A stretch of DNA of 64,000 nucleotides from Escherichia coli (lineage in GTDB: Bacteria; Pseudomonadota; Gammaproteobacteria; Enterobacterales; Enterobacteriaceae), in the NCBI RefSeq assembly GCF_048403405.1, contig NZ_CP183129.1; one strand, given 5' to 3'. Positions 38,775-40,503 of this stretch are shown here, one piece after another. A model generated the notes under the pieces. That model saw only the letters and a list, made by a program, of their open reading frames with translations, ran no database searches and had not been told where the DNA came from. The position numbers and the translations under genes are program-made. Each line of letters opens with the position of its first letter. The stretch's first letter is position 1.

Positions 38775-39770
38775 TCACTGCCATTTACGGTGATACGCGC
38801 CAAGGGTGGTCTGCGTGCCTTCGGACATCGACCCGAGCGTCTCCATCCACGCGCTTTGCGGTACGAAGTTTTGCGGATCGGCCTTACAACGGTCGATAGC
38901 CTGACGCCAGACTTTCGCCACCTGGCTGACATACGCCGGGCTACGCTGGCGGCCTTCAATTTTCACCGAAGCAATATTCGCCGCCATTAACTCCGGCAGC
39001 AGTTCCAGGGTATTGAGACTGGTGGGTTCTTCCAGCGCGTGATAGCGCTCGCCGTCCACCAGATAACGCCCTTTACACAGCGTCGGATAACCTGCGTTTT
39101 CGCCATCCTGATAACGGTCGATCAGCACTTCGTTCAGGCGGGATTCCAGCCCCTGCGGCGTTTGTTGCCAGCGCACGAAACGGGCCGGAGAACACGCACC
39201 CACAGTGTTGGGCGACTCACCCGTCAGATACGACGACAGATAGCAACGCCCTTCCGACATAATGCACAGGCTGCCGAAAGCAAACACTTCCAGCGGGACA
39301 GGTGTGACCCGAGCCAGTTGTTTCACCTGATGAATCGACAACACGCGCGGCAGCACCACGCGTGCAACGTCAAAATGGCGATGATAAAAGTTAATCGCCT
39401 CTTCATTGGTCGCCGAAGCCTGCACCGATACGTGACGTTCAATATGCGGGTAACGCTCGGCGGCGTACTCCAGCATGGCGAGGTCGGCGAGGATCAGCGC
39501 GTCGGCACCCAGCTGCGCCGCCATATCCACGGCGCGCTGCCAGCGGGCGTAACCGTCCGGATGCGCAAAAGTGTTAATCGCGATGTGAAGTTTGCGGCGA
39601 TGTTGATGGACAAAACTCACCGCTTCCTGCAATTTTTTCTCGGTAAAGTTAAGGCCGGCGAAGTGACGGGCATTGGTATCATCTTTTAGCCCGATATAAA
39701 CAGCATCTGCGCCGTTTTCGATGGCCGCCTTAAGCGCCGGGAGATTTCCGGCAGGGCAGAGCAGCTCCAT
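38775..39770 (-). CDS. ubiU: U32-family peptidase-like protein UbiU (YhbU), O2-independent ubiquinone biosynthesis
   Basis: 331 aa from ATG at 39768-39770 (MELLCPAGNLPALKAAIENGADAVYIGLKDDTN...), conserved Cys cluster; ORF-track start 39797 is an upstream extension. Confidence 0.92.
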   Translation of the reverse strand: MELLCPAGNLPALKAAIENGADAVYIGLKDDTNARHFAGLNFTEKKLQEAVSFVHQHRRKLHIAINTFAHPDGYARWQRAVDMAAQLGADALILADLAMLEYAAERYPHIERHVSVQASATNEEAINFYHRHFDVARVVLPRVLSIHQVKQLARVTPVPLEVFAFGSLCIMSEGRCYLSSYLTGESPNTVGACSPARFVRWQQTPQGLESRLNEVLIDRYQDGENAGYPTLCKGRYLVDGERYHALEEPTSLNTLELLPELMAANIASVKIEGRQRSPAYVSQVAKVWRQAIDRCKADPQNFVPQSAWMETLGSMSEGTQTTLGAYHRKWQ

Positions 39771-39978
39771 AATTTTTCCTGAAGGTTGCGCTATCAAAGC
39801 GCAAAAATGTTAACGAACTGGGATTTTAGTTAACCTTGCTGCGACAATTTTTGATTTAAGGCAGTTAAAGTTGTATTGGTGGTAGCAGCAATTTCATATG
39901 GAATTGTTGATTTATACCGCTATGTTATTTTTCTGATATGGCAAAATAGGATGATTGTTGAAACAGGGAGTAAAACTC

Positions 39979-40503
39979 GTGTTGGATAAACTGCGTTCCC
40001 GTATTGTGCATTTGGGGCCATCTCTGTTGAGTGTACCGGTAAAACTGACGCCATTTGCGCTAAAACGCCAGGTTCTTGAGCAGGTCTTAAGCTGGCAATT
40101 CCGTCAGGCGCTGGATGATGGCGAGCTGGAGTTTCTTGAAGGCCGCTGGTTAAGTATTCATGTGCGTGATATTGACCTGCAATGGTTTACCTCGGTGGTG
40201 AATGGCAAACTGGTCGTTAGCCAGAACGCGCAAGCTGATGTGAGTTTTAGTGCCGACGCCAGCGATCTGCTGATGATTGCGGCGCGTAAACAAGATCCGG
40301 ATACGCTCTTCTTCCAGCGTCGGCTGGCGATTGAAGGCGATACGGAGCTGGGGCTGTATGTGAAAAACCTGATGGACGCCATTGAACTGGAGCAAATGCC
40401 GAAAGCCTTACGCATGATGCTGCTGCAACTGGCGGATTTTGTTGAGGCGGGTATGAAAACCGCGCCTGAAACCAAACAGACATCGGTAGGTGAACCATGC
40501 TAA
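39979..40503 (+). CDS. ubiT: SCP2-domain protein UbiT (YhbT)
   Basis: 174 aa from GTG 39979 (V/MLDKLRSRIVHLGPSLLSVPVKLTPFALKRQVLEQ...), preceded by GGGAG Shine-Dalgarno at 39965-39969; divergent from ubiUV. Confidence 0.88.
   Translation: MLDKLRSRIVHLGPSLLSVPVKLTPFALKRQVLEQVLSWQFRQALDDGELEFLEGRWLSIHVRDIDLQWFTSVVNGKLVVSQNAQADVSFSADASDLLMIAARKQDPDTLFFQRRLAIEGDTELGLYVKNLMDAIELEQMPKALRMMLLQLADFVEAGMKTAPETKQTSVGEPC

Follow-up and report, generated by a model that had tools for sequence, protein, structure and literature searches.

Which function is served by a short perfect palindrome located just upstream of ubiU, in the spacer that separates this gene from the divergently oriented ubiT? The question is raised by a 64,000-nucleotide (nt) stretch of the Escherichia coli contig NZ_CP183129.1 (assembly GCF_048403405.1), to which we refer as the window, and where the sequence TTGCGCTATCAAAGCGCAA is found on the + strand at positions 39786-39804. 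The palindrome is located 16-34 nt upstream of the start codon of ubiU within the 208-nt ubiU-ubiT spacer (39771-39978), which is bounded by the ubiU ATG (39770, - strand) and the ubiT GTG (39979, + strand), and both flanking genes are identified by the RefSeq annotation of identical E. coli DNA. An original prediction made from the sequence had described the element at this place as TTGCGC-TATCAAA-GCGCAA, with 6-bp arms and a 7-bp spacer, and had proposed it as the most conspicuous candidate either for a regulatory site or for a hairpin in a 5′ untranslated region (UTR). Coordinates and sequence agree with the window and the perfect repeat is real, although it is longer by one pair, since a repeat search of the window defines 7-nt arms (TTGCGCT at 39786-39792 and AGCGCAA at 39798-39804) that are separated by 5 nt. 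Our analysis somewhat favours the view that the palindrome is the template of an undescribed, structurally conserved hairpin in the leader of the ubiUV mRNA, which tunes either translation or mRNA stability. Within this view, the existence of a selected hairpin in the sense RNA appears very probable, and its specific role in translation or stability has close to an even chance.

Position of the palindrome in the ubiUV mRNA

The palindrome has to be viewed in the context of a promoter whose activation by FNR is well established. Two FNR sites, F1 and F2, were identified experimentally in the ubiU-ubiT spacer (Arias-Cartin 2023, PMC10470549) and are recovered by pattern matching on the + strand of the window at 39851-39864 (F1, TTGATTTAAGGCAG) and 39907-39920 (F2, TTGATTTATACCGC). 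F1 is the activator site of ubiUVp and is centred near -41.5, and F2, which lies outside the hairpin element, serves ubiTp2. Upon mutation of F1, a ubiUVp fusion loses its FNR activation and the anaerobic production of UbiV is abolished (PMC10470549). Chromatin immunoprecipitation (ChIP) has located an FNR peak in the same region, and yhbU is reduced to 0.07-fold in an fnr mutant (Myers 2013, PMC3688515). The summit of this peak maps near 39819, at a resolution too low to separate it from the palindrome.

On the sense strand of ubiU, F1 reads CTGCCTTAAATCAA and is followed after 22 nt by the -10 hexamer TAAAAT (39828-39823, - strand), which was read from the sequence. This hexamer is found as TAAAAT or TAAACT in all 81 loci that were compared, namely the window and 80 others, and the 22-nt distance to F1 is the same in each of them. 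A ubiUVp start 36 nt downstream of F1, as PMC10470549 reports it from the differential RNA sequencing (dRNA-seq) of Thomason 2015, would correspond to 39815 or 39814, and the centring of F1 at -41.5 places +1 at 39816. Together with the class II geometry, this defines a 46-nt 5′ UTR on the - strand (39771-39816) with a start at 39816 ± 2. Because of the published start and the invariant distance between F1 and the -10 hexamer, the palindrome can be assigned to positions +13 to +31 of the ubiUV mRNA, and ubiUVp is a class II FNR promoter activated by F1. A mapped start leaving the palindrome outside of the transcript had been named as an argument against the original prediction; the opposite is found, in line with the proposed 5′-UTR hairpin.

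The same data dispose of the palindrome as agent of anaerobic control. FNR sites are 14-bp dyads of the form TTGAT-N4-ATCAA that usually match in at least 7 of 10 positions and activate from about -41.5 or -61.5. The palindrome resembles such a site in its dyad symmetry, its initial TTG and its location in an FNR-regulated spacer, but it deviates at more than 3 of 10 positions, is located downstream of the start and is not conserved, and it was thus rejected as FNR site. In our FNR scan of the spacer, only F1 and F2 were detected at up to three mismatches. In both sites, a perfect TTGAT half is combined with a degenerate second half, with three mismatches in all. That they were missed in the original prediction is understandable, as matches at this threshold are about as common as expected by chance (275 in the window compared to 240 expected). 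The anaerobic induction is already explained by F1 and F2, and the palindrome is not an oxygen-sensing switch.

The transcribed leader reads 5′-UCGUUAACAUUU-UUGCGCU-UUGAU-AGCGCAA-CCUUC-AGGA-AAAAUU-AUG. Its first part (39805-39816, - strand; UCGUUAACAUUU(UU)) contains one GTTAAC, is predicted to be unpaired and shows an identity of mostly at least 0.9 over 59 promoters. It is followed by the only stable helix in the predicted minimum free energy (MFE) fold, a hairpin whose stem of 7 bp closes a loop of 5 nt (39786-39804, - strand), which consists of the 5′ arm UUGCGCU (39804-39798), the loop UUGAU (39797-39793) and the 3′ arm AGCGCAA (39792-39786). The Shine-Dalgarno core AGGA (39777-39780, - strand) is located 5 nt downstream of this hairpin and is part of a CAGGA motif that is nearly invariant in the alignment. 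The core is predicted to be unpaired with a probability of 0.63, and the prediction for Shine-Dalgarno accessibility is intermediate (mean 0.50) and uninformative with respect to occlusion. The ubiU start codon (39768-39770, - strand) is supported by the sequence, by the RefSeq start and by a 331-residue match from the first residue in 80 loci. A TTG in the hairpin loop (39795-39797, - strand) is in frame and accounts for a 340-residue ubiU entry (38775-39797) in the list of open reading frames. This triplet is situated in a non-conserved segment and is not preceded by a Shine-Dalgarno sequence, and RefSeq and all 80 orthologues begin at the ATG at 39770. A dispersed repeat resembling repetitive extragenic palindromes (REP) or bacterial interspersed mosaic elements (BIME) is ruled out, since the element is single-copy, with a 60-nt query around the palindrome finding a median of one place per E. 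coli genome. Among the covariance models of Rfam 15, none describes a family for the hairpin, and only two chance matches below threshold were obtained, both in other parts of the spacer (CRISPR-DR22, 21.9 bits; rteR, 16.3 bits).

Conservation of pairing and its strand preference

It is the comparative evidence, and not the statistics of a single sequence, that argues for the non-random nature of the palindrome. Our survey used one genome per species and comprised 80 Enterobacteriaceae loci, whose UbiU proteins share 93-100% amino-acid identity. Upstream of ubiU, we find four blocks that are mostly conserved to at least 90%, encompassing F1, the -10 block GGTTAAyTAAAAT, the first 14 transcribed nt (UCGUUAACAAUUUU) and CAGGAnAAAUUAUG. 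What separates these first nucleotides from the Shine-Dalgarno sequence is variable, yet in 67 of the 70 distinct UTRs this segment folds into a hairpin, which starts between +12 and +16 in 62 of the 67 cases and, in an equal number, ends 4-8 nt before AGGA. The arms of the stem are UUGCGCU/AGCGCAA in Escherichia, UUGCGUC/GACGUAA in Salmonella, UGCGCC/GGCGCA and UGCGUC/GGCGCA in Citrobacter, CGAUC/GAUCG in Enterobacter, GCGACC/GGUCGC in Yokenella, GCGGCCC/GGGUCGC in Pluralibacter and ACCGCCC/GGGCGGU in Silvania. In an alignment-free comparison with dinucleotide shuffles of the same segment, the variable part has the lower MFE in 67 of 70 UTRs, with a mean z of -2.07 and p<0.05 in 53% of the cases.

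For the analysis of covariation, we replaced the plain MAFFT alignment by a covariance model that was built from six gap-free sequences and to which all loci were realigned. In the resulting alignment, 89% of the cells are paired and each of the seven pairs shows double changes (38 cells). The observed pairing, the number of double-change cells and the covariation score were not matched in any of 500 column shuffles, and sliding of the 3′ partner by one to three columns lowers the pairing to 11-50%.

The strand on which the pairing matters is indicated by the kind of mismatches that the stems tolerate. With a stem finder that is symmetric with respect to strand and penalises G.T and A.C equally, we detected 17 internal G.T mismatches, equivalent to G.U on the ubiU sense RNA, compared to 2 A.C mismatches. 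By our own count, the former are distributed over about seven to eight independent lineages and the latter over at most one. As a DNA palindrome or a neutral template switch should give equal numbers, this ratio points to the sense RNA. Selection that acts on pairing rather than on sequence, and on the sense RNA, argues for an RNA element and against a protein-binding palindrome in DNA.

A related pattern is found within E. coli itself. In MG1655, the sense position 39799 (3301456 of NC_000913.3) carries a T instead of a C, which changes the repeat to TTGCGT...AGCGCAA. The substitution breaks the dyad in DNA and keeps a U.G pair in the RNA, with a predicted folding energy of -7.3 kcal/mol for the sense strand compared to -3.8 kcal/mol for the antisense strand. 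At 60 nt and an identity of at least 99%, 4689 of 5424 complete E. coli genomes (about 86%) match the MG1655 allele, and 653 (about 12%) match the allele of the window with its C-G pair. The C at 39799 is also found in E. albertii and two other Escherichia species. The perfect palindrome is thus a minority allele in E. coli, though probably the ancestral one.

Alternative explanations

Several observations weigh against a selected leader hairpin with a role in expression. If the window sequence is taken alone, both the repeat and its fold are within chance. When the 208-nt spacer was shuffled 5000 times with its dinucleotides preserved, 11.9% of the shuffles held a perfect inverted repeat with arms of at least 7 nt and 36.8% held one with arms of at least 6 nt (loops of 3-8 nt), and the MFE of the 49-nt leader (-9.7 kcal/mol, z = -1.57) is equalled in 15 of 200 shuffles. 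The sense and antisense strands do not differ overall in their folding energies (p = 0.46), which is why the count of G.U versus A.C mismatches was used in place of this comparison. RNAalifold found no consensus structure on the plain MAFFT alignment of 58 UTRs, since the stems shift register in this alignment, and the covariation counts that were obtained instead lean towards structure because the underlying alignment was fitted to it. Pseudocitrobacter, Proteus and two Enterobacter/Lelliottia loci do without the hairpin, which is thus dispensable. The hairpin also fits neither a switch that occludes the ribosome-binding site (RBS) nor a 5′-terminal stabiliser, as the Shine-Dalgarno sequence is not part of it and 12 unpaired nt precede it. 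Finally, the start of the ubiUV transcript is known from the description in PMC10470549 rather than from the primary dRNA-seq data, and the study of Arias-Cartin 2023 (PMC10470549) does not mention a UTR, a hairpin or a small RNA (sRNA).

Part of these observations would be accounted for by a neutral quasi-palindrome, a GC-rich repeat in a tolerant leader that is kept or renewed by mutation, for example by template switching between the arms or small insertions of hairpin-forming sequence, and that does not affect expression. The free variation of stem sequence, loop, length and number of hairpins (one to three in UTRs of 33-150 nt), the lineages that lack a hairpin, the equal overall folding energies of both strands and the unremarkable statistics of the single sequence are all compatible with this scenario, as is the composition of the window, where short perfect inverted repeats are about twofold enriched over expectation. 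This explanation nevertheless appears unlikely, since a process at the level of DNA should have produced G.T and A.C in equal numbers instead of 17 and 2, and would account neither for the position of the hairpin that is kept in 62 of 67 UTRs nor for the stronger folding of 67 of 70 segments compared to their shuffles. A bias towards G.U over A.C equally points to RNA and away from a DNA operator, where TTGCGC-N7-GCGCAA would be bound by a dimeric factor, for example a repressor that acts from a site downstream of the start. The perfect dyad symmetry in the strain of the window, a location at +13 to +31 that would suit a roadblock repressor and the binding of several factors to the region in ChIP experiments could be taken in favour of such an operator. 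A dimeric site is disfavoured by half-sites and a spacing that vary between genera, unlike the neighbouring FNR site and the -10 hexamer, by the asymmetric version that is carried by 86% of E. coli genomes, and by the poor match to FNR, and the published YbcM and YciT peaks would map elsewhere. A very strong YbcM peak at 3299238-52 (signal/noise 470) and a weak YciT peak at 3299364-93 are assigned to ubiT in the ChIP-exonuclease (ChIP-exo) peaks given by Gao 2021. If these coordinates refer to NC_000913.2, which we assumed as it fits the gene labels and the peak positions of Myers 2013, the YbcM peak would fall on 39989-40003 of the window, inside the start of the ubiT coding region (codons 4-8) and not in the spacer, and the YciT peak on 39848-77, over F1. 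Under this assumption both peaks miss the palindrome, and the two proteins were rejected as its binders. For ArcA, neither yhbU nor yhbT is listed in the ChIP supplements, the induction of UbiT is independent of the regulator (PMC10710024), and a TGTTAA at 39808 was dismissed as a site, as inspection by eye revealed no good direct-repeat partner at 11 bp. We thus consider an operator very improbable.

An element acting on transcription in the early transcribed region, either as hairpin-dependent pause or as attenuator or terminator, is also improbable. A hairpin at +13 to +31 would emerge as the polymerase reaches the start codon, and in Klebsiella and Raoultella it is followed by a terminator-like AUUUUU(C). 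In E. coli, however, the stem is followed by CCUUCAGG and not by a run of U, a terminator scan of 39650-40100 returned no site, most genera equally lack a U-run after the hairpin, and no 3′ ends for ubiU are contained in the examined supplements of an E. coli 3′-end study, which used aerobic cultures. There is little more to be said for a regulated RNA switch, in which the hairpin or its flanks would be targeted by an sRNA or an RNA-binding protein that controls the translation of ubiUV, and we regard it as rather doubtful. A precedent is found in Pseudomonas aeruginosa, where the RBS of the ubiUVT operon is covered by a stem-loop in the 5′ UTR and SicX, an sRNA induced by Anr, opens this structure (Cao et al. 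2023, Nature; PMC10247376), which shows that the operon can be controlled post-transcriptionally through its leader. Both systems share the pathway, ubiU as first gene, an activator of the FNR family (Anr or FNR) and a stem-loop near the RBS. They differ in that the Pseudomonas stem-loop covers the RBS and has an identified sRNA partner, whereas in E. coli 5 nt separate the hairpin from the Shine-Dalgarno sequence, the stem sequence is not conserved and the operon is ubiUV with a divergent ubiT. A switch would be in accordance with the strong sequence conservation of the 14-nt leader and of the RBS flanks, and with the ability of the flanks to pair with the Shine-Dalgarno sequence around the hairpin, as is the case in Dickeya and in species where UUCUG precedes it. 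The FNR-induced sRNA FnrS, the only sRNA that was examined, contains GUUGCGCU (MG1655; L084 359-366), which is the exact complement of AGCGCAAC at 39785-39792 of the window, that is, of the 3′ arm and one additional nucleotide. FnrS nevertheless appears to be an improbable partner, because its full-length duplex does not reach significance (p about 0.09) and the match of 8 nt, of which we estimate that about 0.07 would occur by chance, is buried in a stable stem of FnrS and lost in Klebsiella and Enterobacter. A stem whose sequence is not conserved could not pair with any conserved sRNA, the Shine-Dalgarno sequence of E. coli is located outside of the helix and predicted to be mostly open (0.63), which argues against an RBS-occluding stem-loop, and the searched literature contains no link between an sRNA and ubiU/yhbU in E. 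coli. The stronger proposal that hairpin and conserved flanks together form a SicX-like post-transcriptional control point of anaerobic ubiquinone synthesis, where a trans-acting factor modulates the access of ribosomes, is accordingly held to be a shade less probable still. Such a factor may be FnrS or a protein that recognises leader and stem.

Spacer features, leader diversity and the proposed role of the hairpin

Besides the hairpin, the spacer contains repeated motifs around its promoters. A direct repeat AATT(T/G)TTGATTTA, with copies at 39846-39858 and 39902-39914 (56 bp apart), corresponds to F1 and F2 with five additional shared bases at the 5′ side, and both copies have the same orientation despite the divergence of the promoters. 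Two GTTAAC hexamers at 39809-39814 and 39829-39834, 20 bp apart, bracket the -10 hexamer and the start of ubiUV and are contained in an imperfect inverted repeat (39800-39817 and 39826-39843); their spacing is incompatible with the direct repeats of ArcA. GGTTAAyTAAAAT and TCGTTAACA are at least 90% conserved in 59 distinct Enterobacteriaceae promoters, which exceeds what promoter function obviously requires. A promoter-like match TTGATA-17-AATTAT (39797-39769), overlapping the hairpin loop and the ATG, was disregarded, as about one is expected by chance. In the whole window, 51 perfect inverted repeats with arms of at least 7 nt and loops of 3-8 nt compare to 26 ± 6 in dinucleotide shuffles, an excess that presumably reflects terminators and similar elements.

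The leaders of other species show considerable diversity. Two hairpins are found in Phytobacter, Kosakonia and Buttiauxella, with two-hairpin arrangements observed at loci L047, L052, L053, L063, L069, L071, L077, L082 and L083, and no hairpin was detected at L037, L041, L045, L056 and L060. In the leaders of Klebsiella and Raoultella, and at a few loci that carry the label Enterobacter (L011, L013, L015, L018, L021, L031, L035, L036 and L039, at about 1470-1495), the stretch from the hairpin GCGUCCC...GGGCCGC to the Shine-Dalgarno sequence reads AUUUUU(C), an arrangement that, judged by its sequence, resembles an intrinsic terminator or attenuator and is confined to the Klebsiella/Raoultella clade. 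We also examined eight loci outside the Enterobacteriaceae (L085-L092). An F1-like site and the -10 hexamer are kept in Serratia, Edwardsiella, Hafnia and Mangrovibacter, where the leaders are longer and contain one to three GC-rich hairpins, and in Dickeya the flanks of the hairpin are able to pair across the Shine-Dalgarno sequence. Pectobacterium carries a -10/leader block (TTAAGAT, TCGTTAACAAC) about 150 nt upstream of the ATG, which implies a long leader, and within the 170 nt inspected an F1-like site was found neither in this genus nor in Yersinia. The leader of Proteus is short, AT-rich and devoid of a hairpin. The shortest UTR, that of Pseudocitrobacter, has 33 nt and no hairpin, whereas those of Serratia, Edwardsiella, Hafnia and Pectobacterium reach about 100-150 nt and hold one to three hairpins, and GC-rich hairpins are gained and lost in the ubiU leader across lineages. 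The leader hairpin is therefore widespread, plastic and dispensable.

With respect to the conserved hairpin of the ubiUV leader, two further classes of known elements offer a comparison. The standby model that is ascribed to de Smit and van Duin deals with hairpins that are found at ribosome standby sites ahead of the Shine-Dalgarno sequence, and Espah Borujeni and Salis are said to have reported in 2014 that the geometry of such hairpins sets the rate of translation initiation. The ubiU leader resembles this arrangement in its stable hairpin a few nt upstream of an accessible Shine-Dalgarno sequence with single-stranded RNA on the far side, although standby sites are a general biophysical class and not a family. 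A 5′-terminal stem-loop of the ompA type reportedly hinders the access of RNase E (Emory, Bouvet and Belasco, in 1992), and Richards and Belasco are said to have described obstacles to RNase E scanning in 2019. The GC-rich ubiUV hairpin is similarly placed between the 5′ end and the AU-rich RBS region, but a stabiliser of the ompA type must sit within about 4 nt of the 5′ end, whereas the stem starts at +13 in case of our assigned start. We thus rejected the ompA-type stabiliser, and because about 12 unpaired nt precede the stem, only the version as a scanning obstacle could apply.

In the mechanism that we propose, FNR bound to F1 activates the class II promoter, from which the - strand is transcribed with a start near 39816. 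In the transcript, the initial 12 nt (UCGUUAACAUUU) would stay single-stranded and the region from +13 to +31 would fold into the hairpin, followed after 5 nt by AGGA and subsequently by the AUG. The action of the hairpin would then be post-transcriptional. As a fixed structure that borders the ribosome standby site on its upstream side, it may set the rate at which 30S subunits are loaded onto the RBS of ubiU. As a structured obstacle that separates the AU-rich RBS from the free 5′ end, it may also slow the entry of RNase E. In both ways, the hairpin would tune the output of UbiU and UbiV once FNR has turned on their transcription.

UbiUV makes ubiquinone without O2 and is of importance when cells change between anaerobic and aerobic respiration and when they colonise the gut. 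Should the hairpin be without effect, the oxygen-responsive sites would still be F1 and F2 and not the palindrome. E. coli itself offers two natural alleles for comparison, one with a C-G and the other with a U.G pair in the stem. The known control of ubiUV in E. coli is purely transcriptional and proceeds via FNR, and the presence of a conserved hairpin beside the RBS suggests a second, post-transcriptional layer, as it exists in P. aeruginosa with consequences for infection.

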